64,000 nt of DNA, from assembly GCA_963770895.1 (NCBI GenBank), contig CAVYRF010000001.1, positions 704,481 to 768,480 on the forward strand, written 5' to 3'. A program made the position numbers and the translations under genes. Shown one piece after another: positions 21,916 through 55,953 of the stretch (within the stretch, counting starts at the first letter, position 1; every line of letters begins with the position of its first letter). A model generated the notes under the pieces. That model was not told where the DNA came from. It was given only the letters and a program-made list of their open reading frames with translations, and searched no databases. This stretch comes from an uncultured Acidobacteriota bacterium (lineage in GTDB: Bacteria > Acidobacteriota > Thermoanaerobaculia > Multivoradales > UBA5704).

Positions 21916-22103
21916 CGGCCCCCCGCCGGCGGCGTTCACCGGATCAGCAAGGTTTTTGCGCCCGGCGACCGCCCGCAGCGGGCGCATCGCGCGGCATGCG
22001 CCGGCGATTTAGCTTCTTCGCCGCGATTCATCGATCTGCATACTGCGATTCGATAGCGCCCCGCGGCCGCCCCGGTGGTCCGCCGGTCGGCACCTACTAG
22101 GGT

Positions 22104-31100: not shown

Positions 31101-34100
31101 GAAGAGCTGGCCCTGCCCCGCGACCTCGCCTCGACGCCGCTGTTTCAAGTCATGTTCGCGCTGCAGAACGCGCCCGCGGGGGGCCTCGAGCTGCCGGGCC
31201 TCCGCCTGGCGCCCGTCGCGGTCGGCTCGCGCACCGCCAAGTTCGACCTCACCCTGTCGCTGTCCGAATCCGCCGCGTTCGCTGCTGCGCTCGCACCGGC
31301 GCCGGACCAGGCGGCAACCTTTGCCGGCTGGCTCGAATACAAGACCGACCTGTTCGACGGCGCCACCGCCGAGCGCCTGCTGGACCACTTCGCCGCCCTG
31401 CTCGAGCGCGTCACCGCCGACCCCTCGGCGCCGCTCGCGGACCTCGACCTGCTGGGCGCCGCCCAGCGCCACCAGCTGCTCGTGGAATGGGGGCACGGCC
31501 CGGCGCTCGATACCGCCGGCGCGGCCGTCACCCTCGACCAGTATTTCGAAGCCTCCGTCGACCGCGCCCCCGACGCGGTGGCGCTGGTCTGCGAGCACGC
31601 CAGCCTCACCTACGGTCAGCTCGACCGGCGGGCCAACCGCCTCGCCCATCACCTGCGCCGCCTGGGAGTCGGGCCGGAGACCCCCGTCGCCCTCTGCCTC
31701 GAACGCTCGCTCGACATGGTGGTCGCCATCCTCGCCATCGTCAAGGCAGGAGGCGCCTACGTGCCGCTAGACCCCAGCTATCCGCAAGAGCGCCTGCGTT
31801 TCATCGCCGCCGACGCCCTGGCCGCCGCCAGGCGTCCGGTCCTGGTCACCCGCAGCGGCCTCGCCGGCCGCTTCGTCCGTCTACTGGGTGGGGGCGGTGG
31901 GGAAGGGGAGGGGGTCGGGACCGCCAGCACGCCCTTCCAGCTGGTCCTGGTCGACGCCCACCAGCGGCGCATCGCCCGCGCCCGCGCCAGCGCCCGCCGC
32001 CCGCGCGCCGGCGTGCCGTCCGCCGGTCTGGCCTATGTCATCTATACCTCCGGCTCGACCGGCCGCCCCAAGGGGACGATGAACACCCACCGCGGCATCC
32101 TCAACCGCGTGCTATGGATGCAGGGCGCCCACCCCCTGACCCCCGGCGACCGGGTGATGCAGAAGACCCCCATGTCCTTCGACGTCTCGGTGGGCGAGCT
32201 CTTCTGGCCCCTGCTGGCCGGAGGCTGCCTGGTCCTGGCCCGCCCCGAGGGGCACAAGGACGCCGCCTACCTGGTGCGCCTGGTCTGCGAGCAGGCCATC
32301 TCCATCCTGCACTTCGTGCCGGCCCTGCTCGACCTCTTCCTCGACCAGCCGCAGGTGGCGCAATGCCGCAGCATGCGCCAGCTGGTGGTGGGCGGCGAAG
32401 TGCTCTCGGCCGAGCTGCGAGACCGCTTTCGGGCTCGCCTCCCGCACTGCGAGCTGCACAACCACTACGGCCCCACGGAAGCCGCCATCGACGTTTCGGC
32501 GTGGACCTGCCGGCACGCCGGCGAGCAGGCGCCGGTGCCCATCGGCCGGCCGGTCGCCAACACCTGGCTCTACGTCCTCGACCGCGACCTGCGCCCGCTG
32601 CCGGCGGGGGTGCCCGGCGAGCTGCTCATCGGCGGCGTCCAGCTCGCCCGCGGCTACCTCGGGCGCCCCGACCTGACCGCCGAGCGCTTTGTCCCCGACG
32701 CCTGGAGCGCCGGCGGGCGCCTCTACCGCACCGGCGACCTTGCCCGCCACCGGTCGGACGGCGCCCTGGAATACCTCGGCCGCCTGGACCACCAGGTGAA
32801 GCTGCGCGGCTTCCGCATCGAGCTCGGCGAGATCGAGACGGTGCTCGCCGGACACCCGGCCGTGCGCCAGGCAGCGGTGCTCCTGGTGGATGCGCCGCCG
32901 GCAGGCGCTCAGCTGGTGGCCTGCGTGGTGGCACAACCGGGCGCCGGCACCGGCGCCGAGGCTGCCGCGATCTGGCCGGAGCTGCGCGCCTTCCTCGCCG
33001 CGCGGCTGCCCGACCACATGGTGCCGGCGGCGGTGGTCTGGAGCGCGGCGCTGCCCACCACGCCCAACGGCAAGATCGACCGCCGCGTCCTCACACAGCA
33101 GGCCGCCGACGCCGCGGCGGCGGTACGCGGCACCGCCCTGCCTGCCGCCGCCCCGCCCCGCGATGCCGTCGAAGCCGCCCTGACCGCGATCTGGTCCGAG
33201 ATCCTGGGCCGCGGCACGCTCGACCGCGACGACAACTTCTTCGACCTGGGCGGCCACTCGCTGCTCGCCGTCCGCCTGATGGCCAGGATTCGCCAGCGCT
33301 TCGGCCGCGAGCTGCCCCTGCAGACCCTGTTCCGCGCTGCCACCGTGGGGCAACAGGCGGCGTTGCTGCGAGCCGGCGCGGCGACCGCCGGCCGCTCCAT
33401 CCTGGTCGAGCTGACCCCCATGGCCAGCACCGCCGCCAACGCCGGCACCTCCACCAGCGCCGGCACGCCCACCAACGCCGGCACCTCCGCCGACGCCGGC
33501 ACCTCCGTCAAGGCTGGCAGCCCCGCCGCATCGGAGCCCGCAGCCCGCCCGTTCTTCTGCGTCCACCCCGCCGGCGGCAACGTCCTCTGCTACGCCGAGC
33601 TGGCGCGGTCGCTGGGAGCGGACCAACCCTTCTACGGCCTGCAACTGCCCGACCTGCGAGACCTGCCGCCCGACGCCACGGTCGAGGCGCTCGCCTCCCG
33701 CTACGTGACCGCCCTTCAAGCCGTGGCCCCCAACGGTCCCTATGCCCTGGGCGGCTGGTCGCTCGGCGGAGCCATCGCCTACGAGATGGCCCATCAGCTG
33801 CGCCTGGCCGGCGAACAGGTCGACCTGCTGGCCCTGATCGACCCCTCGCCGCTTTCCGTCACCCACCCGCAGTCGCCGGAACCGGAAGATCCTGAAACCT
33901 CGGCCGCAAGTCCGGCGACGACTGCCAGTGCCGGGATGCCGGCTGCGGAACCGGAAGATGGGAACCACGGCGCCGACGCGCAGCTCGCCGCCGCCTTTGC
34001 CTACGACCTGGCCGCCCTGAGCGGCCACGACGCTGCGCAGCTGGCCGCGGCGCACGCGTCGCTGCACCTCGATCCAACCCGCCCGCTGCCCGACCTGCTG

Positions 34101-34448
34101 GCGGCCGGCCGCGCCGCCGGCCTGCTGCCAGCCGACCTGGCAACCGACGACGTGGAGCGGCTCTTTGACCTCTTCCGTACGACCTGGCAAGCCTTCCGCC
34201 GCTATCGCCCCGAGCCCTACCCAGGCCGCCTAACCCTCCTGCGTGCCGCCCACCGCCGATCGTCCGCCAACGGCCATCCGCCGACAGAGCCCGCCGCCGC
34301 CTGGGCCGCGCTAGCCCGCCAAGGCGCCGACATCGAAACCCTGGCCGGCGACCACTACTCGATCGTCCGCCCACCCGCCGTCGATCGCCTGGCCCAAGCC
34401 CTCCGCCGCCGTCTGACCGCAACCAGCCGCGGCTCCGGCCCCAAGTGA
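22104..34448 (+). CDS. non-ribosomal peptide synthetase, T-C-A-T-C-A-T-C-A-T-TE
   Basis: 4114 aa with a GTG start at 22104. Carrier serines are at 22341 (LGLDSL), 26241, 29691 and 33258 (all GGHSL). C-domain HHxxxD motifs are at 23001, 26859 and 30495. A-domain cores YTSGSTGRPKG are near 24690 and 32045, with YTSGSGGAPKG near 28430. A10 motifs are NGKVDRRAL, NGKLDRRAL and NGKIDRRVL. The TE GWSLGG serine is at 33759. I recognised no E, MT or reductase domain. Confidence 0.97.
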   Translation: MSDSEHPFAARGAGAAPQDLAPAGDLDGGDGRDAMLRAAGPEERAALALAWLRRQAAATLDRDAAQLPADRSLVALGLDSLAAAELSGAVENILKVPLGVADLLAGASLAELAGDIARNLDEAAAASHAGQAGGTVHAGDDGRQVVVPEPHRAGAPPPAAPSPRTALSWGQRALWLVDRMAPGNPAYILAGAAHVGVGAARGGDLDVARLCQAITALVARHAALRMRCEQGSDGEVVQVVGDQPLFGWLEVDAGVLSEQGLHELVAEEAWRPFDLARGPLLRVALFRGGGRAPLLVLAVHHIVADFWSLGVMIDQLGALYQGRLLAPLAATHGEHARRQAERLAGPEGEALAAWWRAALPPGAPALELPTDRPRPPVQGFRGGARTRWWERELVGELDRLGRRAGATPFMTLLAAYMTLLHRYTGQPELRVGTPASGRGAPDLSGLVGYFVNPLVVRGELAGNPGFEQLLSRVRQAVLAVFAHQDFPFALLAELLGGARDPSRPPVFQAMFVFYSERRAGERGMSGFALGEAGARLDLGGLTLESVRLPRRGAQVDLTLLAADRDDRDQRAEREGARAVSLQFDSVLFDGATAERMLGHLCALAAAAVADPGCGIRDLPLLTAGERQQVAEWNATAVAWPGDLRLHQLFEEQARRTPDAVAVVVDAATDADADADADTGADTAGAGSRRGPAPPAAGRAVASAACWTYRGLDRRADRLARRLRQAGVGPESVVAILAERSAAMVAGLLAILKAGGAYLPLDPDHPAERLRQMLHDSGAGVLLAQRRLLPRLGEPDAPPVVAAAVLVLDDPDRDDSAQDEQDDPATGGAAFGAAALALAPDGRPERAPPPLERAVHPDSLAYVIYTSGSTGRPKGTMNTHRGIVNRLLWMQQQYRLAADDRVLQKTPLSFDVSVWELFWPLATGACLVMARPGGHRDSGYLLAALAAHQITTVHFVPAMLSDLLAALPPRGDASSGAGPWDAAPAGLRRVVASGEALPYGLQQRYYAALAAPLHNLYGPTEAAVDVTHWATDPDADRRLVPIGRPVANTWIRLVDRQGGLVPIGVPGELCIGGVQLARGYLGRPALTAERFVPDPLGDAAGARLYRTGDLARYLPDGAIDYLGRLDHQVKIRGVRIELGEIEAALLRHPAVREAVVTVAAVADHASPAGADPRLAAYLVTRGAAAPPRAGEPAAGEPAAPPAAPAAAPPSDLADDLRRLLRQSLPEAMIPAAFVVLPALPLSANGKVDRRALPAPRWGAAAVAGTPPRTADQEILAGLFAELLGLTVAGDRSGDSSGNGGSRASGDSSDDGESSGNGGSSGNGGSRGSVDSGGSGAAAGGWVAGTQGGEAADARGVAAASGGEQGGGLGIDQSFFDLGGHSLLATRLLARVRQVFAVELPLRQVFEAPTVARLAAAIAAARRGDLAAAPPLVPLPPAARQGPLALSFAQERMWFLDQLEGGGATYNMPGVLRLAGPLQVAALRAGLAEVCRRHEVLRTTFTVRDGAAGPVARVARPAAAPGPPLPLVDLSGLAAGCRQAVASRLAALEARRPFDLVAGPVLRAVLLRLSGGPPAAAQALHLLLLTLHHIAADAESVEVLARELAALYTAGATGRPPDAAALPPLPVQYADFAAWQRAALSGDRRAAEVAFWREQLAGARGAPPVLELPCDRPRGTVSGRRGARRPVVLPAALAGRLAAVARDHRATLFIALLAAFDTLLGRYGGQDDVAVGVPVANRDRAQIQPLIGLFVNTLVLRLDLSGDPTFGELLGRARQTALAAYGHQEMPFEQLVAHLQPRRAAGESPFFQVVLALQPGLAAPAMAGLAVELAPGDTGTAKFDLSLALDVAPDGSLAGTWTWRAGLFDPATIERLSVQLRQLLAAVAAGEPGPAGRLSELPLLGPAERHQLQREWNDVWQPGGGDLLHAAFERRAAQVPDAVAAVEAGHDGLMGRSLTYGELAARAGRLACRLAALGVAPERIVGVSLPPSLDLLVALLGILKAGGAYLALDPAQPRERRAQILAESSALLVVAASPAAPTAPVTAATAAASSSVIAATTAAAAARPSAVEGLMLLGPDGRAAALGAAAGATPRRTPFPPAPDPDPDNAAYVLYTSGSGGAPKGVVVSHRAVVNRLRYQVAADLAPDSRVLQRARLAFDVSVLELFAPLWAGAAVVLIDAARQQDAGYLARVVAAQQVTNFNAPPALLPALLAEDELRRCRALRRVVLGGERVPVDLAHRFATMMAAGPGAAPLLLSRYGPTEATISVTEWHCRPAPAAPAGSAGPLGWPIAGARLHLLDRHGREVPPSAPGELCIGGICLARAYLARPDLTAAAFIPDPFAAPGEEAGSRLYRTGDLARRRAGGELEFLGRIDRQVKIRGFRVELGDVEAALARHPGVRETAVVDRDEPATGGRRLVAYVVPRQADAGGLEPQALRSFVAEHLPPYMLPAAWVLLDCLPLTANGKLDRRALPEPADLSPAADAAEPAALDGASGRRGAAPRTPAEELLAGIWCQLLGVRQVSIGDDFFHLGGHSLLATQLVSRLSATLAVDLPLAKVFEHPTLAAMASAIEQARGLGGAEPTVAGLAGRLTPAHEAGGGAGRGDGARPVPLPLLPRQAGGAAAQLPLSFAQQRLWFLDRLAPGSPAYNMPLAVRLSGDLDIPALAAGVAALVARHETLRTTFHETAGEPWQRIAPPLAAGASSGAGAGAAATSALPVVDLRALVDAGEPDGEPGGGPGLDAGWPGQPDGFAPLPLPRRALAAALDLAAAAARRPFDLARGPLFRPLLLRLTGREHLWLGTMHHIVSDGWSLGVLVRELTAVYAALAAGREPRLPALPVQYADYAAWQRQRLSGDLLAAQIAHWRERLAGLPARLDLPVDRPRPAVETVAGAQRRWRLAGDVAGRLRQLAAASGATPFMVLVAAFQALLGRWSGQQDLAVGTPIAGRNRIEIEGLIGFFVNTLVLRADLSSGPRRLAFDQLLARTREATLAAYAHQELPFERLVEELALPRDLASTPLFQVMFALQNAPAGGLELPGLRLAPVAVGSRTAKFDLTLSLSESAAFAAALAPAPDQAATFAGWLEYKTDLFDGATAERLLDHFAALLERVTADPSAPLADLDLLGAAQRHQLLVEWGHGPALDTAGAAVTLDQYFEASVDRAPDAVALVCEHASLTYGQLDRRANRLAHHLRRLGVGPETPVALCLERSLDMVVAILAIVKAGGAYVPLDPSYPQERLRFIAADALAAARRPVLVTRSGLAGRFVRLLGGGGGEGEGVGTASTPFQLVLVDAHQRRIARARASARRPRAGVPSAGLAYVIYTSGSTGRPKGTMNTHRGILNRVLWMQGAHPLTPGDRVMQKTPMSFDVSVGELFWPLLAGGCLVLARPEGHKDAAYLVRLVCEQAISILHFVPALLDLFLDQPQVAQCRSMRQLVVGGEVLSAELRDRFRARLPHCELHNHYGPTEAAIDVSAWTCRHAGEQAPVPIGRPVANTWLYVLDRDLRPLPAGVPGELLIGGVQLARGYLGRPDLTAERFVPDAWSAGGRLYRTGDLARHRSDGALEYLGRLDHQVKLRGFRIELGEIETVLAGHPAVRQAAVLLVDAPPAGAQLVACVVAQPGAGTGAEAAAIWPELRAFLAARLPDHMVPAAVVWSAALPTTPNGKIDRRVLTQQAADAAAAVRGTALPAAAPPRDAVEAALTAIWSEILGRGTLDRDDNFFDLGGHSLLAVRLMARIRQRFGRELPLQTLFRAATVGQQAALLRAGAATAGRSILVELTPMASTAANAGTSTSAGTPTNAGTSADAGTSVKAGSPAASEPAARPFFCVHPAGGNVLCYAELARSLGADQPFYGLQLPDLRDLPPDATVEALASRYVTALQAVAPNGPYALGGWSLGGAIAYEMAHQLRLAGEQVDLLALIDPSPLSVTHPQSPEPEDPETSAASPATTASAGMPAAEPEDGNHGADAQLAAAFAYDLAALSGHDAAQLAAAHASLHLDPTRPLPDLLAAGRAAGLLPADLATDDVERLFDLFRTTWQAFRRYRPEPYPGRLTLLRAAHRRSSANGHPPTEPAAAWAALARQGADIETLAGDHYSIVRPPAVDRLAQALRRRLTATSRGSGPK
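25965..26200 (+). repeat. in-frame Ser/Gly/Asp low-complexity insertion with short tandem repeats inside NRPS carrier domain 1
   Basis: AGCAGCGGCAACGGCGG recurs at about 25983, 26037 and 26055. The peptide is GDRSGDSSGNGGSRASGDSSDDGESSGNGGSSGNGGSRGSVDSGGSG...GGEQGGG. It lies between EILAGLFAELLGL and GIDQSFFDLGGHSL. Confidence 0.7.
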
Positions 34449-38271: not shown

Positions 38272-38468
38272 TGCGGGGGGAGTCTACCAGGTAGGGTGGG
38301 AGTCGATTGCGTGCTTTCGAACGGTGCGGCAGGCGGGGACATGGTATCATTTGCGCACATTCGACGGCCAGGTATTTGTCGCCGCCGAGCCGCTGTAGTA
38401 CCTTAGTACCCAATGGCGAAAATGCTGGTGCCTCGGTGGGTCGTGCGACGGGTCAAGGTCACCGCGCA

Positions 38469-39227
38469 ATGAAGACCGTGTCCCGCCTGCTGTCCGTCGC
38501 CGCCTACGGCCTGGTGCGACCGTGGATGCGGCGCCGGGTGGGCCGGACGGTGCTCGAATCGATCGATGGCGTGCCGCTGGTGGTGTTGCCCCAGGTGCTC
38601 AACCCGCGCGTCTTCCGCACCGGCGCCTGGCTGGCGCAGGCGGTGCCGCCGGCTGCCGCGCCGGCGGCCACCCGCCGCGCTCTCGACATGGGCACCGGCT
38701 CGGGCATCGGCGCCATCTTCGCCGCCCGCCGCGGCTATCGCGTGACGGCGCTCGACATCAATCCCCACGCCGTCCGGTGCGCTCGCGTGAACGCCCTGCT
38801 CAACGGCCTGGACCAGCAGATCGACGTGCGGCAGAGCGACCTGTTCGACGCCGTCGCCGGCGAACGCTTCGACCTGGTGCTGTTCAATCCGCCATTTTTC
38901 CCCGGCACGCCGCGCGATCCGCTGGACGCGGCCTGGCGCAGCCACGACGTCATCGAGCGCTTCACCGCCGGCCTGCCCGCGGCGCTGGCGCCGGGAGGGT
39001 CGGCCCTGCTGCTGCTGTCCAGCGCCGGCGGCTCCGACAGCAAGCTCCTGGCCCACGTCCCCGCCCAGCTGCGCGTCGCGCCGGTCTTCCGCCGCGGCTT
39101 TGCCGGCGAAACGATCACGCTCTTTGCCGCCACCTGGGTCCCCGCCGCCAGCGCCAGCGCGGCCCAGGCCGGCGCCGCCCGGCCGCTGGCGGCGCCCGCG
39201 CTGTCCTCCGTGGAGGTGATGCGATGA
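38469..39227 (+). CDS. HemK/PrmC-like (NPPF motif) SAM-dependent methyltransferase
   Basis: ATG 38469. Motif I is LDMGTGSGIGAIFAA and motif IV is LVLFNPPFFPG. Its stop overlaps the next start (ATGA at 39224). Confidence 0.75.
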   Translation: MKTVSRLLSVAAYGLVRPWMRRRVGRTVLESIDGVPLVVLPQVLNPRVFRTGAWLAQAVPPAAAPAATRRALDMGTGSGIGAIFAARRGYRVTALDINPHAVRCARVNALLNGLDQQIDVRQSDLFDAVAGERFDLVLFNPPFFPGTPRDPLDAAWRSHDVIERFTAGLPAALAPGGSALLLLSSAGGSDSKLLAHVPAQLRVAPVFRRGFAGETITLFAATWVPAASASAAQAGAARPLAAPALSSVEVMR

Positions 39228-40816
39228 GCGCCAGCGTTGCCTCGGCAGGCGTGTCGGGCGCGGCGGCGGGCCGCCAGCGGGTGCTGCTGGTCAATCCGCG
39301 CATGTGCTCGCGCCGCTCGATGCGCCTGCCGCTGTCGCTGCTGTCGCTGGGTTCGGTCCTGGAAGGGCGCTACGACTACCAGCTGATCGACGGCAATGTC
39401 GATCCCGACGCCATCGGCACCGCGCTCGCCGCGCTGGCGCAAGGCGACCATGCAATGGTGGGGGTGAGCGTCATGCCGGGGCCGCAGGTGGGGCCGGCGA
39501 TCGCGCTGTCCACCGCGGTGCGCGCGCACTTCCCGCAGGTGCCGATCGCCTGGGGCGGGTACTTCCCGACCCTCTACCCGGATTCGGCGATCAACGCTTC
39601 GTACGTCGACTACGTGGTGCGCGGCCAGGGCGAAGAAACCCTGCTGGAGCTGCTGGCGCGGCTGCCCGACGCCGGGCCGCCGGCGCCGCCATCCGACTCG
39701 GCTGCCGACGCCGGCGCCCTGGCCGGCCTGGCGGGCCTGACCTTCAAGCACGACGCCGAAGTGCGGCACAACGCCGACCGCCACTTCAAGCCGCCGGACG
39801 ACCTGCCGCCGCTGCCCTACCAGCGCCTGGCCGACGTCACGCCCTACCTGCGCCCGACGTTCATGGGGGCGCGCACCGGCGTGCACCAGGCGGCCCTGGG
39901 CTGCCGCTATCGCTGCAGCTTCTGCGGCGTCGTCACGATGTTCAACGGCGTCACCCGCCTGCAGGGAGCGTCGCGCCTGGCGCAGGCGGTGACGACGCTG
40001 CGCGACAAGTACGGCGCCGACTCGATGCAGTACTACGACAACAATTTCTTCGACCGCGAAGAGAGCAGCGTGCCGCTGCTCGAAGAGCTCGCCCGCCTGC
40101 AATCGCCCTGGTGGTGCTATGCGCGCGCCGACACCATGGCGGGCTTTTCGACCCGCACCTGGGAGCTCATCCGCCAGAGCCGCATGCGCATGGCCTACAT
40201 CGGCGCCGAAGCGGGGAGCGACGCGGCGCTGCGCCAGATGAAAAAGGGGTCGCGCGTCGAAGACACGTTGGAGGTCGCGCGCCTGTGCCGCGCCTACGGC
40301 GTGGTGCCCGAGCTGTCGTTCGTGCTCGGCGGCCCCGACGATCCCGAAGGCGAGGTCGAGCACACCCTGAGCTTCATCAAGCGCATCAAGCAGATCCACC
40401 CCACCTGCGAAGTCGTGCTGTACTTCTACAGCCCGACGCCGCGGCGGGAAGCCGCGTCAGAGGCGACGCGGGCCAGCGGCCTGCGCCTGCCGGTGATGGA
40501 CAACTACGGCCCGGACGGCCCGCCGCTGCCGACGACGCCGCTCGAATGGACCGAGCGCAAGTGGATCGACTACGTGTGCCACCAGGACGCGCCCTGGCTG
40601 TCGCCGCGCCTGCGCCGCCGCGTGCGCGACTTCGCGACCGTGCTCGGCTGCCGTTTCCCGACCGTGCAGGACGCCAAGACCCCGGACTGGGGCAAGGCGA
40701 TCCTGCGCAACCTGTCCCGCTGGCGCTACAGCAGCGGCCTCTACGGCAGCCCCTGGGAGCTGGAGCTGGCCCGGCGCCTGGTGCCCTTGCGCCAGCCGCA
40801 GCGCGAAAGCCTGTGA
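39224..40816 (+). CDS. class B (cobalamin-binding-domain type) radical SAM enzyme, copy 1
   Basis: 530 aa. An N-terminal alpha/beta domain (VLLVNP...PLSLLSLGS...) is followed by GCRYRCSFC (CxxxCxxC). It is a paralogue of the 46896..48320 gene, sharing N-terminal and C-terminal motifs. Confidence 0.88.
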   Translation: MSASVASAGVSGAAAGRQRVLLVNPRMCSRRSMRLPLSLLSLGSVLEGRYDYQLIDGNVDPDAIGTALAALAQGDHAMVGVSVMPGPQVGPAIALSTAVRAHFPQVPIAWGGYFPTLYPDSAINASYVDYVVRGQGEETLLELLARLPDAGPPAPPSDSAADAGALAGLAGLTFKHDAEVRHNADRHFKPPDDLPPLPYQRLADVTPYLRPTFMGARTGVHQAALGCRYRCSFCGVVTMFNGVTRLQGASRLAQAVTTLRDKYGADSMQYYDNNFFDREESSVPLLEELARLQSPWWCYARADTMAGFSTRTWELIRQSRMRMAYIGAEAGSDAALRQMKKGSRVEDTLEVARLCRAYGVVPELSFVLGGPDDPEGEVEHTLSFIKRIKQIHPTCEVVLYFYSPTPRREAASEATRASGLRLPVMDNYGPDGPPLPTTPLEWTERKWIDYVCHQDAPWLSPRLRRRVRDFATVLGCRFPTVQDAKTPDWGKAILRNLSRWRYSSGLYGSPWELELARRLVPLRQPQRESL

Positions 40817-42537
40817 CGGACACCCAGCCCGACAGGCTGCCGGCAGCGAAGCTGCCGCTGCGGCACGGCGCCTATGCGTGGCAGACGCGCTGGCGCCCCG
40901 GCGAGCTCGCCACCGCCCGCTTCATGCCCATGGGCCTCCACCTGGAGCTGGTCACCAACAGCCCGCCCCTCCTGGCTGCCGCCCGCCAGTGCTTCGGCGG
41001 CTACGGCGAGCCGGCGCCAGACCGCCCCGTCGATCTCACCCTGAGGCTCTACCAGCACTCCGTCGACGCGCCGGCGCCAGGCGCTGGCGTCGCTACGACC
41101 GCCGCTACGTCCGGCCACCTCGCCACGGCAACGGCCGCCGCCGCCAACCCGGCCGGCACCGCCGGCCTCCCCGACCTGGCCAACACCGCCAACCCCGCCG
41201 ACCAGGGGTTCAACGGGGGCAGCGTCGCGGCGATCCACCCAGTGAGGGCGGCTGCCCTCCCGGAGGCCGGGCCGCCCGGCGCCGCCACGTCCGGCAGCTG
41301 TGTCGCCGCAACCGCCGCCGGCGCCACCCCCGGCTCCGTCGCTGCAACCGCCATCCACGCCTCGACGACCGGCAACGCCGCTGCTGCAACCGCCATCGGC
41401 GCCGCCATGTCTGGCAGCTCTAGCGCAGCAACCGCTGCCGACGCTACGACCGGCAACTCCGCTGCTGCAGCCGCCATCGGCGCCGCCATGTCTGGCAGCT
41501 CTAGCGCAGCAACCGCTGCCGACGCTACGACCGGCAACTCCGCTGCTGCAGCCGCCATCGGCGCCGCCATGTCTGGCAGCTCCGTCGCCGCAACCGCTGC
41601 CGACGCTACGACCGGCAGCTCCAGTGCCGCAACCGCTGCCGACGCTACGACCGGCAGCTCTAGTGCAGCAACCGCTGGCGACGCCACGACCGGCAGCTCC
41701 GTCGCCGCCACCTCACCTGTCGCCGCGATGGCTGGTGCCGCCGCCGGCGGCCGGGACGTGCATTTCTTTGACGGCGGCGCCGCCGGCGCGCCGCTGTCCG
41801 CGCCGATCCTGCGCTGCGAGGGTCCGTATCTCTACCAGGCCAGCGGGTCTGACACGGTGATGGTGGCCGACCGCGGCGCCGGGGTCACCTTCGGCTACCT
41901 GGCCGCAGCGACCGTGGCCGATGCAGCGCACCTCACCTGGCACTACCTGTGGCCGGCGGTTTCCTATCACCTGGAATGCCGCGGTTTTGCCGGAGTGCAC
42001 GCCGCCGCCATCGCGCGGCGAGGCCGCGGGCTGCTGCTGCGCGGCCGCAGCGGCCAGGGCAAGACGACGCTCACCTATGCGGCCACCCGTCGCGGCTGGC
42101 AGGCCGTCAGCGAAGACATCGTATGGGTGGACGCCCGCGGCGCCACCTGGTGGGGCTCGCCCTGGACCTTCCACCTGCTGCCGGACGCCCGCCAGCTCTT
42201 TTCCGAGTTGAGCGGGCGCGGCGTCGCCCTGCAGCCCAACGGCGAAGTCAAAGTGGTGGTCGACATGGAATCCCTCTGGCCCGGCAGCACCCTGCCCAAG
42301 GCCGCGGCCGGCCCGGTGGTCATCCTGGAGCGCCGCCATGGCGGCACCAGCAGCCTGGTCACCCTCGACCCGGCCACAGCGCACCACGAATGGCTGGACG
42401 GCTGCGCCCGCCACGAGCGCCAGGCCCCCGGCTACGACCAGACGGTGGCGGACCTGCTCAGCAGAGGTTGCCACCGCCTCCACCTGGGAGACGACCTGGA
42501 CGGCGCCCTGGACCTGTTGGAGCCGCTCCTGCCATGA
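40813..42537 (+). CDS. HPr-kinase-related P-loop kinase with long internal low-complexity repeat region
   Basis: GTG 40813 overlaps the upstream stop (GTGA). The C-terminal domain is GFAGVHAAAIARRGRGLLLRGRSGQGKTTLTYAATRRGWQAVSEDIVWV, which matches the HprK C-terminal-like P-loop pattern. An Ala/Thr/Ser-rich stretch of about 190 aa separates the N- and C-terminal domains. Confidence 0.7.
   Translation: MTDTQPDRLPAAKLPLRHGAYAWQTRWRPGELATARFMPMGLHLELVTNSPPLLAAARQCFGGYGEPAPDRPVDLTLRLYQHSVDAPAPGAGVATTAATSGHLATATAAAANPAGTAGLPDLANTANPADQGFNGGSVAAIHPVRAAALPEAGPPGAATSGSCVAATAAGATPGSVAATAIHASTTGNAAAATAIGAAMSGSSSAATAADATTGNSAAAAAIGAAMSGSSSAATAADATTGNSAAAAAIGAAMSGSSVAATAADATTGSSSAATAADATTGSSSAATAGDATTGSSVAATSPVAAMAGAAAGGRDVHFFDGGAAGAPLSAPILRCEGPYLYQASGSDTVMVADRGAGVTFGYLAAATVADAAHLTWHYLWPAVSYHLECRGFAGVHAAAIARRGRGLLLRGRSGQGKTTLTYAATRRGWQAVSEDIVWVDARGATWWGSPWTFHLLPDARQLFSELSGRGVALQPNGEVKVVVDMESLWPGSTLPKAAAGPVVILERRHGGTSSLVTLDPATAHHEWLDGCARHERQAPGYDQTVADLLSRGCHRLHLGDDLDGALDLLEPLLP
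41380..41703 (+). repeat. in-frame tandem repeats (81 bp x about 2.6, then 36 bp x about 3) inside the kinase gene
   Basis: Units start at 41380, 41461 and 41542 (GCTGCTGCARCCGCCATCGGCGCCGCCATGTCTGGCAGCTC...). They encode AAATAIGAAMSGSSSAATAADATTGNS, followed by AATAADATTGSS repeats. Confidence 0.85.
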
Positions 42538-43721
42538 CGCTCGAAGCAATCGCGGACCAGGAGGCTACACCGCCTGCCGCCGCCGCCGCTGCCGGCGGGT
42601 CGCCTTCCGCCGCCGTCGCCGGTGGCGAGCCGCCACCCGGCGCTGCAGGAGACGCCGGGCGTCTGGCGTGGATGTGCGAGCGGCTGGCCGTTTGGGTGGT
42701 CGCCCCGCCGCCGCAGCCGCCGCCGGCGTGGCCGGCCGCGGCGTGGGAGGACTTTCGTGCCGCCACGCAGGTCCACGGCGTCGGCCCGCTGCTGGGGCGG
42801 CGCCTGGGCGACCGCCAGCCATGGTCGCAGGCGGCAGCCTGGCTTGGCGCCGAGCATGCCGCCAACCGCTTGCGCGTCGAGCGTCTGCACCAGGACTTGC
42901 GCGCGATCCTGGCGCGCTTTGCCGCCGCGGACGTGCCGCTCATGCCGCTCAAGGGCGCGGTGCTGGGGCCGCTCTATTATTCCGACCCCGCGGAGCGGCC
43001 AATGGCCGACCTGGACCTGCTGGTGCGCGCCGAAACGCTGGCGCAGAGCGCCCAGCTGCTGGTCGACATCGGCTATGAGGTGGTCTTTGAAGGCCGCAAA
43101 CACGTCAAGCTGGCGCCGCGCGGCGGCCGTCGCCGCCCGGTCAGCGACGCCGGCGGCGCCAGCGACGGCGACGTTGGCGCCGACGCCGGTGGTAGCCCCG
43201 GCCCCGGCCCCGGCGACCACGAGGCGGCCGGCGAGCACCCCGACAACCCGCGCTGGGTCGAGCTGCATCCGGCCTGCGGCGAATGGCTGGGGGACGAGCG
43301 CATCGATCTGACCGGCCCGATCTGGGCCGGCGCCCGCCGGCAGCCGCTGCTGGGCGAGCCGGCCTGGCTGCCCGACCCGGCGACCCATTGGCTCTACCTG
43401 TTGGTGCATGCCACCCACCACATCCTGATCAATCGCTTCCGTCTCATCCAGCTGCTCGACCTGCTGCTGCTTTGCCCGACGGACCTGTTGGGCGCCGCCC
43501 TCCAGGTCGAGCCGCCCGCCGCCGCGGCCGCCATGGCGCGCGCCCTGTACCCGCCTCTCGCGCTCCTCCAACGGTACTTCCCGGCGGGCGCCACCGCCGC
43601 CGCGACGGCCCTGCGCCAGGACTTGCGCGCGCGGCTGGCGCCCGGCTACGCGGCCTGGGCCGACGGCCTGGACCTGTTCCAGGCTTGCTATCTCGACGCC
43701 GCGCCGTGGAGGGCGCCATGA
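42534..43721 (+). CDS. uncharacterised nucleotidyltransferase family protein (PF14907-like)
   Basis: ATG 42534 overlaps the upstream stop (ATGA). VPLMPLKGAVLGPLYYSDPAERPMADLDLLVR and LYLLVHATHH resemble the NTP_transf_5 family signature as I remember it. Confidence 0.7.
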   Translation: MTLEAIADQEATPPAAAAAAGGSPSAAVAGGEPPPGAAGDAGRLAWMCERLAVWVVAPPPQPPPAWPAAAWEDFRAATQVHGVGPLLGRRLGDRQPWSQAAAWLGAEHAANRLRVERLHQDLRAILARFAAADVPLMPLKGAVLGPLYYSDPAERPMADLDLLVRAETLAQSAQLLVDIGYEVVFEGRKHVKLAPRGGRRRPVSDAGGASDGDVGADAGGSPGPGPGDHEAAGEHPDNPRWVELHPACGEWLGDERIDLTGPIWAGARRQPLLGEPAWLPDPATHWLYLLVHATHHILINRFRLIQLLDLLLLCPTDLLGAALQVEPPAAAAAMARALYPPLALLQRYFPAGATAAATALRQDLRARLAPGYAAWADGLDLFQACYLDAAPWRAP

Positions 43722-45148
43722 GCGAGCCTGGCGCCGTCAGCGAGCCGGGCACCGTCGGCGAGCAGGGTGCCGTCAGCGAGCCGGGCGCCGCCAGCGAGCC
43801 GGGCACCGTCAGCGAGCAGGGCGCCGTCAGCGGGCCGGGCGCGGTCAGAGCGCGGGGCGCCGTCAGTGGGCCGCGCGGCATGAGCGGTCAAGGCGCCATG
43901 AGCGAGCGCCCGGTGGTGGTGGTGGTGGGCGACGCCGTGGCGCCCACCGGCTTCGCGCGCGTGCTGCACAGCATTCTGGGGCGGCTCGCCGACCGTTACG
44001 AGTTCCATCACCTGGGGGTCAACTACGGCGGCCAGCCGCACGAGCACGCCTGGCAGATCTATCCCGCGGACGGCGGCGGCGACCTGCACGGCGTGCGGCG
44101 CGTGCGCGACCTGGTGGAAAAGGTGCGGCCCCGCCTCGTCTTCCTGCTCAACGACCCCTGGCTGATGGGCGGCTACCTCGACGCCTTGGGCGATTGCCGC
44201 GCCGGCATCAAGGTGATCGCCTACGCGCCGGTCGACGCCGGCCCGCTGGAGGCGGAGCTGGTGGCGCCGCTCACCGGCCTGGATCACCTGGTGCTCTATA
44301 CCCGCTACGGCCTGCAGGAAATGGAGGCGTCGGCGGCGCAGCTGCGCCGCCTGCGCCCCGACGCGGCCGCCTTCCCGGCGCTGTCGGTCGTGCCGCACGG
44401 CGTCGATTCGGACCTCTTCCGCCCGCTCGCCGGCCCGCCCACGGCGGCGGCGCCCGGCGACTTTGCCGCCTCCCGCGCCGCGGCGCGCCGCCAGCTGTTC
44501 GTCGACCCGGCGCTGCACGACGCCTGGATCGTCTTGAACGCCAACCGCAACCAGCCGCGCAAGCGCATCGACGCGACGATCAAGGGCTTCGCGCTCTTTG
44601 CGCGCGACAAGCCGCCCAACGTCCGCCTCTACCTGCACATGGGGATGGTCGATTGCGGCTGGAACGTGGTCGCCCTGGCGCGCCGTCACGGCATCGAAGA
44701 CCGGCTCATCCTGACCGCCGAGGAGCACTTCCTGCCGGCGGTCGCCGACGATCTGCTCAACCAGATCTACAACGCCTGCGACGTGGGCATCAACACCTCC
44801 CTGGGCGAGGGCTGGGGCCTGGTCAACCTGGAGCACGCCGCCACCGGCGCCGCCCAGGTGGTGCCCCGCCACAGCGCCTGCGCCGAGATCTGGGACGGCG
44901 CCGCCGAGCTCGTCGAGCCCGTCGCCAGCCTCACCATGGAAGGCCTGCTGACCGAAGGCCGCCTGGTCGGCCCCGAAGGGGTCGCCCGCGCCCTCGATCG
45001 CCTGTACACCGATCCCTCCCACCTGCGCCGGCTGTCCGCCGCCGCCTACCAGGTCGCCACCCGCCCCGAATACCGCTGGGACGACGTCGCCCGCCGCTGG
45101 GACGATCTCTTCCAGCAGATGCTGGCGGCCACCCCCACTGCCGTCTGA
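43718..45148 (+). CDS. GT1/GT4-family glycosyltransferase with repeat-encoded N-terminal extension
   Basis: ATG 43718 overlaps the upstream stop (ATGA); alternative in-frame ATGs are at 43880 and 43898. The catalytic part starts at ERPVVVVVGDAV, and the GT1 core includes NTSLGEGWGLVNLEHAATGAAQVV. Confidence 0.85.
   Translation: MSEPGAVSEPGTVGEQGAVSEPGAASEPGTVSEQGAVSGPGAVRARGAVSGPRGMSGQGAMSERPVVVVVGDAVAPTGFARVLHSILGRLADRYEFHHLGVNYGGQPHEHAWQIYPADGGGDLHGVRRVRDLVEKVRPRLVFLLNDPWLMGGYLDALGDCRAGIKVIAYAPVDAGPLEAELVAPLTGLDHLVLYTRYGLQEMEASAAQLRRLRPDAAAFPALSVVPHGVDSDLFRPLAGPPTAAAPGDFAASRAAARRQLFVDPALHDAWIVLNANRNQPRKRIDATIKGFALFARDKPPNVRLYLHMGMVDCGWNVVALARRHGIEDRLILTAEEHFLPAVADDLLNQIYNACDVGINTSLGEGWGLVNLEHAATGAAQVVPRHSACAEIWDGAAELVEPVASLTMEGLLTEGRLVGPEGVARALDRLYTDPSHLRRLSAAAYQVATRPEYRWDDVARRWDDLFQQMLAATPTAV
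43721..43900 (+). repeat. 18-bp in-frame tandem repeat x about 10 at the 5' end of the GT1 gene
   Basis: Units AGCGAGCCGGGCGCCGTC (SEPGAV and variants) run from 43721. The context GCGCCATGAGCGAGC occurs at both ends, at 43714-43728 and 43894-43908. Confidence 0.85.
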
Positions 45149-45283: not shown

Positions 45284-45589
45284 GTGGCGATTACGGTTGT
45301 CAATCAGTCGGTCGGTGCTCTGTCCTATACCGTGTTCGGCGGCTCGACTTCGGGTTCGGGCACGGGCGGGTCGGGCAGCAAGGGTTCGGGAACCACGGGC
45401 TCCGGTACCCACGGCTCGGGCGGCGGCTCGGGTGTCGTGGCTTCGGGCGTCGTCGGTCCGGGTGGCACCGCGTCCGGGATCCAGGTGGGTGCAGGCTCCT
45501 ATACCGTGGTCTTCGGGTGGAAAACCTTCCCCAGCTACACGGTTTCGGCCTCGGGTGTGGTCAAGGTGACGACGACCGTCCAGCCGTAG
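45284..45589 (+). CDS. 101-aa Gly/Ser/Thr-rich small protein (candidate modification substrate or scaffold)
   Basis: GTG 45284 lies 5 nt after GGAGG (45274-45278); an alternative TTG is at 45260. The sequence is VAITVVNQSVGALSYTVFGGSTSGSGTGGSGSKGSGTTGSGTHGSGGGSGVVASGVVGPGGTASGIQVGAGSYTVVFGWKTFPSYTVSASGVVKVTTTVQP. Codon third positions are less GC-biased than in the neighbours, and an AT-richer gap precedes it. Confidence 0.6.
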   Translation: MAITVVNQSVGALSYTVFGGSTSGSGTGGSGSKGSGTTGSGTHGSGGGSGVVASGVVGPGGTASGIQVGAGSYTVVFGWKTFPSYTVSASGVVKVTTTVQP

Positions 45590-45621
45590 CGCGTTCCGAA
45601 CGGTTGCCAGCGCGGCGCGGC

Positions 45622-46656
45622 GTGTCCAGACCTTCGCTGTTCGTCGTCTCGCTGCCGCGCTCTCTTTCGACGCTGCTCTACCACGCGATCCGCCAATCGC
45701 TGGCGTTGCGTGAGCCGCAGTGGACGACGGACGGGGAGATCCTCAACGTCCGTCGCTTTGCCTTTCTGGCGGAGGAGGGCGCGGTCGAGGGGGTGCGCTA
45801 CGTCCAGCGCGATCACGACGGGCCGCGCTTCGCGAAGCTCCTGGCCTTCCTCGACCAGGTGACCCAGGCTCAAGGCTTTGCCTACAAAGACGTCATCCAG
45901 CCCTTCGTCGTCGGCGAATGGCTGGCGCGCCAGAGCGCTCCGCCGGTGGGCGTGAACCGGCCCGCTGCAGCGGCCTCCTCCTCAGCCGCTGCCGAAGGCG
46001 CCACCGCCGCTGCGGCCGCCGCCGAGCGGCGCCGCTCGGCGTCATCGCCGAACAGCCCCGCACGCCCCACACCAGCGGCGCCAGCCCCCGCGGCCGTCTC
46101 TGCCTCCAGCGCTGCGGCACCCGCCCCGCGCGTCCTGGTCATCGACCGGCCGGTGCCTGACGTGGCCGCCTCGTTGCTCGATCGCGGCTGGCTGTATCCA
46201 GCGCTGGCCGCCGACGGCGCGGCGGCGCTTCCAGAGGCCGCGCGCGCGGTGGTCGCCGGTGCCCACACCGCCGACCTGTCGGCATTCCTCCCGCCCGACC
46301 AGGTGGAACGGGCGCTGGTGTCCGGCTTGCTGCGCGCCCGCCGGACCCTGGCCCGCCTGGCGGACCCGCCCCCGGCATGCGCCAGCCGGTGGGTGGTCTA
46401 CGACCAGCTGATCCACGACGAAGCGCCCTTGCATCAGGCCTTGCAGGCGCTCTACGGCGAAGACGTCCCGCCGCCCGCCTATCTGGACGACGAGTTCTGT
46501 CGCCAGCGCGATCAGGTGCTGCGCCGCCGCGCCAGCCCGCTCTACCAGCGCCTGCAGGCGCTCAGCGACGAGCTGGCGACCACGATGCTGGCCGCGCCGC
46601 CGGCCGCCGCCATCGGCGCCGGCGTCGCCGCGGCGCCACGGCGCCGCACGCAGTAG
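45622..46656 (+). CDS. sulfotransferase-like protein (tentative)
   Basis: GTG 45622 (or TTG 45604). The N-terminal FVVSLPRSLSTLLYH resembles the PAPS 5'-phosphosulfate-binding loop (LPRSGSTLL) of bacterial sulfotransferases, but with Gly replaced by Leu. An Ala/Ser/Pro low-complexity insertion lies at about 45960-46130. Confidence 0.45.
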   Translation: MSRPSLFVVSLPRSLSTLLYHAIRQSLALREPQWTTDGEILNVRRFAFLAEEGAVEGVRYVQRDHDGPRFAKLLAFLDQVTQAQGFAYKDVIQPFVVGEWLARQSAPPVGVNRPAAAASSSAAAEGATAAAAAAERRRSASSPNSPARPTPAAPAPAAVSASSAAAPAPRVLVIDRPVPDVAASLLDRGWLYPALAADGAAALPEAARAVVAGAHTADLSAFLPPDQVERALVSGLLRARRTLARLADPPPACASRWVVYDQLIHDEAPLHQALQALYGEDVPPPAYLDDEFCRQRDQVLRRRASPLYQRLQALSDELATTMLAAPPAAAIGAGVAAAPRRRTQ

Positions 46657-46680
46657 CCACCTGCAACACGCTCCGCTCAC

Positions 46681-46861
46681 CGCTCGCCTTCACGGCTCGC
46701 GGTTCGCCACCTGCCTCTTGCGGTTCGCCGCTCGCCCTTCACGGCCCGCGGTTCGCCACCCGCCTCTTGCGGTTCGCCGCTCGCCTTCACGGCTCGCGGT
46801 TCGCCACCCGCCGGTTGCGGTTCGCCGTTGCCGCGGCTCGCGGTTCGCCACCCGCCGGCGG
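46681..46861. repeat. 48/49-bp tandem repeat x about 3.7 in the convergent intergenic spacer
   Basis: Units run 46681-46728, 46729-46777 and 46778-46825, with a partial fourth unit to 46861. The word GCGGTTCGCC occurs 7 times. It lies between the stops at 46656 (+) and 46896 (-). Confidence 0.85.
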
Positions 46862-54916: not shown

Positions 54917-55953
54917 CTTGAGGTCTCCCGGCCGCCTGGGCCGCCTGAATGATTGGGCTGCTGAGCCATCCCCACCCGCACCGGCCGCGCCGGCACGCCC
55001 GCCACCGTGACGCCGGCGGCCACGTCGTCCACCACCACGGCGCCGGCGGCGACCGTCGCATCGTCGCCGACGTGGACGCCGCCCAACACCAGCGCGCCGG
55101 CGCCGATGGTGACCCGGTCGCCGACCCGCGGGTAGTCCAGCTCGTCGAAACGGGCTTCCCCCAGCGTGACGCCGTGCAGCAGCGTGCAATCCTGTCCGAT
55201 CACCGTGTAGCCGCCGATCACCAGGCCGACGCCATGGGCGATGATGCAGCCGCCGCCGATCTGGGCGCGCGGCAGGATGTCGACGCCGCAGGCGCCGATC
55301 GCCCAGCGGCGGCAGGCCGCGGGCAGCGCCGGCACCCGCCACCGCAGCAGTGTATGCGCCATCCGGTAGGCCAGCAGCGCCTGAAACCCGGAATCGAACA
55401 CCAGGGCATCCAGCAAGGCCACCAGGAAGCTACGCCCCTTGACTTGGCGCAGCCGATGAAAATCTCGTGCCAGCGGCTGCCAGAACCGGGCCGCCGCCAG
55501 CCGGGGCGGTGGTGTCGTCGTGCCTCGCCGCACTCCCGTTGGGCGGTTGTCGGCCGCGGCTGGATCGCTCCCCGTCGGTGCGGGCTCGACCGCCGCGGGT
55601 GCGGGTTCGACCGCCGTGGGTGTGGGCTCGACCGCCGTGGGTGCGGGTTCGACCGCCGCGGGTGCGGGCTCGACCGCCGCGGGTGTGGGCTCGACCGCCG
55701 GGGGTGCGGGTTCGACCGCCGTGGGTGCGGGTTCGACCGCCGCGGGTGTGGGCTCGACCGCCGGGGGTGGGGAAGGCCGCGGTGCGGCGCCGGACGGCGT
55801 CGTGTCGAGCGCCTCCGGCCGGCGCGCCGGTTCGGCGCCGGCAGGCGCCGCCCCTGGACCGGATCGCCCGGCTTCCGTGGGTGCCTCAGGTGGGTTGTCC
55901 CGCGCTGACGGCTGACCGGCCGGCCCGGTGGCGTTTGGGTCGGCGGCGCTCAT
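54913..55953 (-). CDS. serine-O-acetyltransferase-like hexapeptide-repeat acyltransferase with repeat-rich N-terminus
   Basis: 346 aa from ATG 55953. The C-terminal part GGCIIAHGVGLVIGGYTVIGQDCTLLHGVTLG...RVGDRVTIGAGALVLGGVHVGDDATVAAGAVV is a left-handed beta-helix. Confidence 0.8.
   Translation of the reverse strand: MSAADPNATGPAGQPSARDNPPEAPTEAGRSGPGAAPAGAEPARRPEALDTTPSGAAPRPSPPPAVEPTPAAVEPAPTAVEPAPPAVEPTPAAVEPAPAAVEPAPTAVEPTPTAVEPAPAAVEPAPTGSDPAAADNRPTGVRRGTTTPPPRLAAARFWQPLARDFHRLRQVKGRSFLVALLDALVFDSGFQALLAYRMAHTLLRWRVPALPAACRRWAIGACGVDILPRAQIGGGCIIAHGVGLVIGGYTVIGQDCTLLHGVTLGEARFDELDYPRVGDRVTIGAGALVLGGVHVGDDATVAAGAVVVDDVAAGVTVAGVPARPVRVGMAQQPNHSGGPGGRETSR
55578..55766 (-). repeat. 21-bp in-frame tandem repeat x 9 (AVEPxPx) in the acetyltransferase gene
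   Basis: Plus-strand units GTGYGGGYTCGACCGCCGNGG run from 55578 with a period of exactly 21 nt. They encode AVEPTPA, AVEPAPT and similar heptads. Confidence 0.85.

Follow-up and report, generated by a model that had tools for sequence, protein, structure and literature searches.

How does a run of 18-bp repeats come to lie between the start codon of a glycosyltransferase (GT) gene and its conserved core, and does the cell make any use of it? In the window analysed here (the whole 64-kb stretch of DNA), such an array occupies the junction between two genes of an operon. The original prediction held that the array arose by amplification of the GT gene's own start-codon region, and that its length either tunes translation or coupling of the GT or represents neutral, VNTR-like variation.

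Architecture of the array and its operon junction

The array consists of ten units of 18 nt (60 codons) in codon register at positions 43718–43897 of the forward strand, encoding in order MSEPGA, VSEPGT, VGEQGA, VSEPGA, ASEPGT, VSEQGA, VSGPGA, VRARGA, VSGPRG and MSGQGA, and is followed directly, from 43898, by MSERPVVVVVGD. The approximately ten consecutive units previously noted in a SEPGAV register from 43721 are thus present as claimed. TRF describes the array with a period of 18 (9.3 copies, 81% matches, 0% indels, score 208) and also with a 54-nt super-period (2.9 copies, 86% matches, score 230), units 1–3 and 4–6 matching at 48 of 54 positions; when the whole window was shuffled 15 times with dinucleotides preserved, the highest array score was 78. 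With 9.3–10 copies, set against a definition of at least three head-to-tail copies of a 10–100 nt unit beyond chance expectation, the array is a minisatellite by copy number. The units carry approximately 19% substitutions and zero indels (TRF), and their identity to the consensus, which for units 1–10 is 17, 17, 15, 17, 17, 17, 16, 15, 12 and 12 out of 18, is lowest in the last two, bearing out the predicted greater divergence of the 3'-ward units. Exact repeats of 18–19 nt are left within the array at 36- and 54-nt spacing, and an exact 16-mer, GGCGCCATGAGCGAGC, occurs at both edges (43712 and 43892), 180 nt apart. A shared edge string had also been predicted; this is found at both edges, although its coordinates were off by one, the 15-mer GCGCCATGAGCGAGC lying at 43713–43727 and 43893–43907. 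The 5' edge copy, an ancestral-type 18-nt unit (AGGGCGCCATGAGCGAGC, 43710–43727, forward strand), adjoins unique sequence on its upstream side and agrees with the junction that relatives have in single copy, while the 3' edge copy (AAGGCGCCATGAGCGAGC, 43890–43907, forward strand) matches the ancestral unit at 17 of 18 positions and contains ATG 43898, one of two in-frame ATGs (the other at 43880) that were correctly foreseen.

Immediately upstream lies the gene for an uncharacterised nucleotidyltransferase (NTP_transf_5; Pfam PF14907, E = 8.5e-31; 42534–43721, forward strand), the product of which is 54% identical to its orthologue in the relative L018. This gene ends TGG AGG GCG CCA TGA, and so contributes both a Shine-Dalgarno (SD) site and a stop codon overlapping the GT start. 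The GGAGG site (43707–43711, forward strand) is 6 nt upstream of ATG 43718, with only its last two bases falling within the repeated unit, and TGA 43719–43721 overlaps ATG 43718–43720 to give the ATGA overlap (43718–43721, forward strand) to which coupling had been attributed, and which is the most likely site of GT translation initiation. The operon's four successive gene junctions each have this same 4-nt overlap.

The conserved GT core (43898–45148, forward strand; Pfam Glycos_transf_1/Glyco_trans_1_4) is 87% identical to its closest homologue, P0002, and scores above the cut-offs for PF13692 (32 bits) and PF00534 (31 bits); its best solved relative is the GT4 enzyme of PDB 3oy2 (E = 1.8e-26). 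The AlphaFold model (pTM 0.84) has alternating beta/alpha elements, with pLDDT >90 from residue ~66 onward. On the evidence of the family models and of the two-Rossmann-domain fold predicted, the protein is a GT-B glycosyltransferase, CAZy GT4-like. Residues 1–59 are modelled at pLDDT <50 and without secondary structure, a low confidence due in part to there being no aligned homologues in this region, and no Pfam family covers residues 1–60. This predicted 60-residue tail is rich in Gly, Ala, Ser, Val, Pro and Glu, with a pI of 4.5, and is included in the public gene call, which is the 476-residue form.

Origin of the array

In three relatives (87, 81 and 70% identical) the junction is single-copy, with the same GGAGG ribosome-binding site (RBS) and a 4-nt ATGA or GTGA stop/start overlap. 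The L002 junction reads ..CCGTGGAGGGCACCGTGAGCGAGCGGCCG.., those of L003 and L018 being alike, and the -4 overlap (GTGA in L002 and L003, ATGA in L018) is shared by a further relative, L020 (ATGA). Aligned to L002, L003 and L018, the array is a clean 180-nt insertion with colinear flanks, its units copied from the 18-mer that lies across the stop/start overlap. Because the relatives carry a single junction and the array is a clean insertion into it, sequence comparison supports the proposed origin by local amplification of the start-codon region. A unit belonging to a dispersed repeat family was considered and rejected: elsewhere in the 64-kb window there are three weak matches (at most 3 mismatches) against approximately 1.5 expected by chance, which leaves the array as the unit's one site in the window.

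Homologues identify ATG 43898 (MSERP...) as the ancestral GT start, as judged from their N-termini. That of P0002 reads MSERPAVVVVGD, with an MSERP start, many homologues begin MS.ERP, and approximately 118 of 120 are without an N-terminal extension of comparable length. None of the collections searched contained a relative closer than 87% or one with the array, and one scan each of genome and metagenome contigs recovered only relatives at ≤49% identity.

These comparisons show how the array formed. The ancestor possessed a single junction, ..TGG AGG GCG CC ATGA GCG AGC GCC CGG.., in which the nucleotidyltransferase stop overlapped the glycosyltransferase start. Tandem duplication of the 18-nt segment AGGGCGCC-ATG-AGCGAGC across this overlap was then followed by amplification, the version amplified being an internal variant in which GTC replaces ATG, partly in 54-nt steps, with the outcome that ten extra units (180 nt) separate the overlap from the old start.

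Probable translation of the array

The array contains no in-frame stop and is fused to the GT open reading frame, and GC3 shifts to the GT frame at ~43700. The calculated anti-SD duplex at the SD of ATG 43718 (-9.8 kcal/mol) is among the top ~2% of 20-mers in the window and takes the same value in L002 and L003, against -3.4 kcal/mol before both ATG 43880 and ATG 43898, where the background mean is -3.3, in an argument that presumes a canonical anti-SD. For a coding minisatellite, the 18-nt period and open frame, together with GC3, the SD and the ATGA overlap, point at the sequence level to initiation at 43718. Since a strong SD accompanied by ATGA occurs at the first array copy only, and since the units have accumulated substitutions without indels, translation most likely begins at 43718 and renders the array as an acidic tail of 60 residues. 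With the strong site confined to that copy, coupling would be unchanged and the array simply read through: ribosomes would start within the 5'-most copy, which holds both RBS and overlap, and the product would bear an acidic, disordered tail at the N-terminus of the conserved GT-B enzyme. The upstream protein would be left unaltered, because every extra copy falls after its stop codon.

Variation in this part of the protein is seen elsewhere in the family. Homologues have between 1 and ~70 residues ahead of the conserved ..VVVGD.. strand, with tails of ~20–35 residues before the GD motif in P0012, P0006, P0122 and P0123. In L020 (70% identical; protein P0008) an unrelated Pro/Arg-rich insertion of ~55 residues occupies the same place behind the same ATGA overlap; as it contains no internal start, long N-terminal tails are evidently made and tolerated in this GT family.

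Alternative explanations

The array might instead be an untranslated spacer, or the gene might have a dual start, with the GT beginning at the ancestral ATG 43898 (or at 43880) and the array serving as an uncoupling 180-nt leader, or long and short forms being made together, such that repeat number would set spacing and GT dosage. The ancestral N-terminus, MSERP, is kept, and ATG 43898 with its preceding 9 nt is intact although neighbouring units have drifted to 12–13 of 18 positions relative to the ancestral unit; a rough binomial estimate gives P ~0.02–0.05 for such preservation of the 3' edge copy if it were drifting freely, so that continued use of the old start is conceivable. Two of the four coupled junctions of the operon, moreover, do without a strong SD. 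However, neither internal ATG has an SD, duplex energies there being at the background mean, and translational coupling drops sharply over distances <20 nt (PMC12548453), so that initiation 180 nt beyond the stop of the upstream gene, far past that range, would be uncoupled. Ribosomes initiating at the strong coupled site at 43718 would also meet no stop and continue in frame, the lack of indels suggests selection on the reading frame, and there is no RNA structure signal able to expose or mask a start site, all of which make a spacer or a dual start unlikely. That the array itself, or its length, is an artefact of mis-assembled repetitive reads is very improbable indeed. Assemblers are known to make errors at tandem repeats, but nearly every unit here is distinguishable from its neighbours, the array is just 180 nt and fits within one read, and its flanks are colinear with those of relatives. 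The gene occurs in just one other assembly, made separately by Logan from run ERR11571140, and there its product is identical at 476 residues, though this run is possibly the source of the genome itself.

A role as a contingency or tunable locus would require a hypermutable VNTR, its copy number varying in the population so as to modulate GT activity, localisation or operon stoichiometry. In Neisseria, Haemophilus and Campylobacter, the genes classically subject to repeat-mediated phase variation include those for glycosyltransferases, and substrates for slippage or precise excision remain in the exact repeats within the array and in the 16-nt repeat at its edges. Against this, an 18-nt unit makes frameshift switching impossible, and the degeneracy of the units, together with the 6 of 54 sites at which the 54-nt super-units differ, indicates an old, stable array rather than one in active turnover. 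Similar arrays are also present in unrelated genes across the window, and length variants are equally wanting: the Logan protein is the same length, none turned up in a collection of 15 billion proteins, and a protein search with the first 120 residues (the array and the beginning of the core) gave five matches, all core-only, although this search missed P0001 itself and its sensitivity is doubtful. We accordingly consider a contingency locus rather improbable. Less credence still is given to a more elaborate, length-adjustable element, in which a long form from ATG 43718 and a short form from the unusually well-preserved ATG 43898 would both be made, and 18- or 54-nt steps or 16-nt-repeat excision would tune GT ratio or activity relative to its partners in the radical-SAM peptide-modification cluster, in a high-GC lineage that would be making new protein by amplifying gene boundaries and translating the final codons of the upstream gene in a different frame.

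Role of the array

Between the two functions originally envisaged, neutral VNTR-like variation is favoured, and a tunable translation or coupling element is disfavoured by the restriction of the SD to the first copy, the degenerate units, the lack of a fold signal and the many similar arrays. Differences between units fall on codon positions 1, 2 and 3 in the ratio 6:10:9, and the codon changes comprise 17 that are nonsynonymous and 4 that are synonymous; these counts suggest no visible amino-acid constraint, in what is a weak test of ten short units sharing ancestry. The segment 43690–43930 is no stabler than its shuffles (z = +1.09) and the window contains no Rfam match; an RNA element was rejected on these grounds.

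The window is rich in comparable repeats. There are 24 TRF rows scoring at least 80, compared with 0 in 15 shuffles, their periods being nearly all multiples of 3; a stricter, SATFIND-like exact-decamer count finds 4 loci in the 64 kb and leaves out the GT array, so that comparison with published densities is indicative only. Relative to L018, the HprK-like gene two genes upstream of the GT contains an array insertion of ~225 residues and the nucleotidyltransferase gene an insertion of 25 residues, both specific to the lineage, and L003 and L020 likewise carry arrays in their HprK-like/nucleotidyltransferase genes. We infer that in-frame tandem arrays arise in this genome with unusual frequency.

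The array is therefore probably best regarded as a lineage-specific, near-neutral coding minisatellite at a permissive site, likely adding a disordered tail to the enzyme, and as a harmless by-product of the genome's proneness to repeats rather than a means of regulation. The tail would have no specific function, and its persistence would reflect both the tolerance of insertions between the coupled start and the first beta-strand and the readiness with which in-frame arrays form. Relatives with insertions of independent origin at this position are consistent with such tolerance, and the locus illustrates that an insertion does no harm to a tightly coupled operon so long as it lies between the stop of the upstream gene and the first strand of the downstream fold. 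It also provides a clean case of coding sequence whose birth is legible in the DNA itself: as it is the stop/start overlap that was amplified, the last codons of the upstream gene, read in a different frame, supply part of the new peptide, and what was once the start codon has become an internal Met or Val. For annotation, the 476-residue call is probably right, with the conserved enzyme starting at residue 61. Understanding of glycosyltransferases and of translational coupling is unaffected by the array, and the more interesting lead is how very densely this part of the genome is populated with in-frame tandem arrays.

Comparison with known systems

Our search of the literature for tandem duplication of start codons found nothing specific, and the closest parallels come from better-known repeat classes. 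The array resembles bacterial coding minisatellites or VNTRs in having head-to-tail units, a multiple of 3 in length, which lie within an open reading frame and derive from slippage or unequal recombination, residues being gained or lost while the frame is kept. Typical coding minisatellites are found inside surface or cell-wall proteins, whereas the GT array lies at the extreme N-terminus of a cytoplasmic-type GT-B enzyme, and its unit originated where two genes meet, combining 8 nt from the 3' end of the upstream gene with the start codon and the initial 7 nt of the GT. In a survey of satellites across prokaryotes, those with long units were mostly multiples of 3 and located in genes (PMC6749651). 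The name VNTR implies polymorphism, and the GT array is known here by one length.

MIRUs are tandem units placed at start codons or intercistronic operon junctions, where the -4 stop/start overlap and coupling are preserved (PMC12548453). The GT array is similarly placed at an operon junction and retains ATGA 43718–43721 at its first unit. It differs in that MIRUs, with units of 46–101 bp, are dispersed and apparently mobile, whereas the GT unit is 18 nt, local and, within the 64-kb window, confined to the array; a MIRU also has its own small ORF ending at the downstream start, in contrast to a stop-free array fused in frame to the GT. In the phase-variable loci of Neisseria lgt, Haemophilus lic/lex and Campylobacter GT genes, the repeat tract lies in the 5' coding region just after the start codon, and the present array likewise lies right behind a glycosyltransferase start. 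Those tracts, however, are perfect, consist of 1–7 nt units of a length not divisible by 3, and turn expression on and off by frameshift, unlike an array of 18-nt units with 81% matches that is always in frame and outside the promoter. A further comparison is with the variable N-terminal tails of the GT family itself, in which P0008 of L020, like the GT described here, carries an insertion, of independent origin, at the same position; of these tails, just the one in the window can be recognised as a tandem array and still betrays its origin.

Structure of the tandem array

Divided into 18-nt steps, the sequence over 43400-44300 contains ten tandem 18-nt units, extending from ATG 43718 through 43897 at the 5' end of the glycosyltransferase (GT) gene, which in codon register read MSEPGA, VSEPGT, VGEQGA, VSEPGA, ASEPGT, VSEQGA, VSGPGA, VRARGA, VSGPRG and MSGQGA and are followed directly, from 43898, by MSERPVVVVVGD. 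Tandem Repeats Finder (TRF) detected this array both at period 18 (9.3 copies, 81% matches, 0 indels, score 208) and as a 54-nt super-period (2.9 copies, 86% matches, score 230), whereas no array scoring >78 arose in 15 dinucleotide-preserving shuffles of the whole window, establishing that the repeat claimed in the original prediction is real. The greater divergence of units towards the 3' end described there is likewise apparent, identity to the consensus unit running, 5' to 3', 17, 17, 15, 17, 17, 17, 16, 15, 12 and 12 of 18, and both of the expected in-frame ATG codons, 43880 within the array and 43898 after it, are present. The 15-mer proposed to lie at both edges is found there too, albeit one base away from the positions suggested (at 43713-43727 and 43893-43907), and the match is actually an exact 16-nt repeat, GGCGCCATGAGCGAGC, at 43712 and 43892 with a spacing of exactly 180 nt.

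Units 1-3 and 4-6 are identical at 48 of 54 positions, with the pattern P/P/Q and A/T/A in both, and the internal units carry GTC (GCC once) at the position where the edge copies have ATG. Besides the edge repeat, exact 18-19-nt repeats persist in the array at 36- and 54-nt spacing; judged from the sequence, all of these should remain substrates for slippage, and a single event between the 16-nt edges could excise the whole array precisely.

Origin of the array

The window's 476-residue GT protein is present in a public protein collection (P0001). Nearly all of its best 120 homologues start about 1-30 residues (most 6-17) ahead of the conserved ..VVVGD.. strand. P0002, the closest at 87% identity, has the N-terminus MSERPAVVVVGD, and many others begin MS.ERP. 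Homologues with a named source belong to Acidobacteriota, chiefly Thermoanaerobaculia. In the DNA of three relatives (L002, L003 and L018) the junction is single-copy (CCGTGGAGGGCACCGTGAGCGAGCGGCCG, CCGTGGAGGGCGGAGTGAGCGGCGAGCGG and CCCTGGAGGGCGGAATGAGCGCC, respectively), each time with GGAGG ahead of the ATGA or GTGA overlap, and a four-way alignment with the window contains one clean 180-nt insertion in the window between colinear flanks. In the register AGGGCGCC-ATG-AGCGAGC, at 43710-43727, 8 nt of the unit come from the 3' end of the upstream gene, 3 from the start codon and 7 from the beginning of the GT; the copy at the 3' edge (43890-43907) agrees with it at 17 of the 18 bases, and the unit has no occurrences beyond chance outside the array within the 64-kb window. 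Because the junction is single-copy in relatives, the edge copies match and the unit is confined to the array, the originally predicted origin, by local tandem amplification of the region around the start codon, is well supported by these comparisons. The GTC of the internal units, together with the resemblance of units 1-3 to units 4-6, suggests that after the first duplication a variant unit (GTC for ATG) would have been amplified, partly by 54-nt steps.

Scans of genomes and metagenome contigs returned no relative closer than 49% identity, and no length variants of the GT were found in protein searches. The gene is present in just one other assembly, a 5-kb Logan contig (run ERR11571140) that encodes an identical 476-residue protein; the run is possibly the source sample itself.

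Operon context and choice of start codon

The GT ORF, which matches Glycos_transf_1 and Glyco_trans_1_4, is the last gene of an operon (38307-45148) encoding in order a methyltransferase, a B12-binding radical SAM protein, an HPr-kinase-like protein, a nucleotidyltransferase (ORF 42534-43721; NTP_transf_5, E = 8.5e-31) and the GT, with 4-nt stop/start overlaps at the four successive junctions (39224, 40813, 42534 and 43718). This gene order is repeated in the metagenomic relatives L003, L018, L019 and L020, in which the operon adjoins further radical-SAM/SPASM genes and small ORFs; these neighbours suggest a putative peptide-modification (RiPP-like) cluster.

At the GT junction the upstream TGA (43719-43721) shares bases with ATG 43718, so that the ATGA overlap, used at every operon junction, is retained at the first array copy. 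The predicted duplex with the anti-Shine-Dalgarno (anti-SD) sequence before 43718 is -9.8 kcal/mol, a value that places it among the strongest ~2% of 20-mers in the window and is shared by L002 and L003. A start 180 nt downstream would be uncoupled, because coupling efficiency, according to a review of the subject, falls substantially with distance increases of <20 nt (PMC12548453). The array combines ~19% substitutions with 0 indels and its reading frame is open, as expected of translated sequence, and near 43700 the GC3 signal passes from the frame of the upstream gene to that of the GT. In L020, whose GT (P0008) is 70% identical, an unrelated, barely repetitive Pro/Arg-rich insertion of ~55 residues (L020 5001-5190) occupies the same site, preceded by the same ATGA overlap and followed by the conserved core, and on sequence grounds appears to be a second, independent insertion; it contains no internal start codon before the core, and this GT family thus produces and tolerates long N-terminal tails. 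Shorter extra tails occur in L019, P0006, P0122 and P0123.

It is nevertheless conceivable that the ancestral start, ATG 43898, is still used. The 3' edge copy that carries it is better preserved (17/18) than the neighbouring units (12-13/18), and whilst part of this copy encodes the conserved Ser-Glu-Arg-Pro, such coding leaves unexplained the intact GGCGCCATG, the probability of which under free drift is a few percent by rough estimate; a strong SD site is, moreover, missing at two of the four coupled operon junctions. However, the SD duplexes before both 43898 and 43880 are only at background level (-3.4, against a mean of -3.3), and we consider it probable that GT translation begins at 43718.

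The probable N-terminal extension

AlphaFold2 modelling with 43 homologues placed the GT-B core from residue ~66 with high confidence (pLDDT >90, pTM 0.84), its nearest solved relative being the GT4 enzyme 3oy2 (E = 1.8e-26), whereas residues 1-59 had pLDDT <50 and no secondary structure, the shallow alignment over this tail adding to the low confidence. With a pI of 4.5 the tail is acidic; Gly, Ala, Ser, Val, Pro and Glu are abundant in it, and it is covered by no Pfam model. Departures from the consensus unit are spread 6:10:9 over codon positions 1, 2 and 3, and the changed codons comprise 17 nonsynonymous and 4 synonymous, so that these counts give no sign of amino-acid constraint, although the test is weak as the units share ancestry. 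Folding of the RNA over 43690-43930 was no better than that of shuffles (z = +1.09), and Rfam gave zero matches in the whole window. The most likely consequence of the array is a near-neutral, disordered N-terminal extension of the GT.

A possible repeat-prone genome

The window as a whole is densely populated with tandem arrays, yielding 24 TRF rows scoring >=80, against none in 15 shuffles; the periods are almost all multiples of 3 (15, 18, 21, 24, 33, 36, 39, 48, 54, 63, 81), and most arrays can be placed in high-GC3 ORFs. Within the operon, the HPr-kinase-like gene two genes upstream of the GT (40813-42537, + strand) contains a large in-frame array at 41283-41712 (81 nt x 4.2, 89% matches; 39 nt x 10.8); with this array insertion its product gains ~225 residues, after the N-terminal segment and ahead of the P-loop domain, when compared with the 331-residue L018 orthologue. 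L003 too has an array near this position, but a different one with a 42-nt period. The nucleotidyltransferase likewise carries a 25-residue low-complexity Gly/Asp/Ala/Pro-rich insertion (43128-43215) absent from its L018 orthologue, with 6-nt periodic stretches detected by TRF at 43144-43173 and 43195-43214. Both L003 and L020 have arrays of their own in these operon genes; the single L018 array scoring >=60 lies outside them.

Elsewhere in the window, convergent genes (ORF 45517-46656 and a radical-SAM gene ending at 46896) flank an apparently non-coding array at 46680-46856, with 3.8 copies of a 48-nt unit at 90% matches and with some indels; RNA folding of this array gave no signal (z = -0.18), and its unit is absent from the rest of the window. 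The best-preserved array, at 55577-55769 (21 nt x 9.2, 63-nt super-period, 95% matches), is overlapped by several open frames. At least two 18-nt arrays, at 25972-26106 and 33423-33527, lie within a giant ORF at 22101-34448 (+ strand, 4116 codons, GC3 0.92), along with further repeats at 28224-28296 and 30356-30432.

In a survey of prokaryotic satellites the majority of those with long units were genic and multiples of 3, and only 18 bacterial species exceeded 4 per Mb (PMC6749651); a rough re-implementation of its SATFIND-like criterion gave 4 loci in the 64-kb window, or ~60 per Mb, and this lineage may have an exceptional propensity for minisatellites. On the simplest interpretation, the GT array is one among many products of a repeat-prone genome, kept at a permissive site. 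The abundance of in-frame arrays is a more promising lead than the GT array itself, which is of modest interest.

Comparison with known repeat systems

The GT array is a fresh example of an already known repeat class, working like, and probably qualifying as, an in-frame coding minisatellite. A phase-variation tract can be rejected, as the unit is 18 nt long, degenerate and always in frame. MIRUs resemble the array in occupying an operon start-codon position with the -4 overlap kept (PMC12548453), but form a dispersed family, as the array's unit does not within the 64-kb window, and have a unit with its own terminating ORF, which the array lacks.
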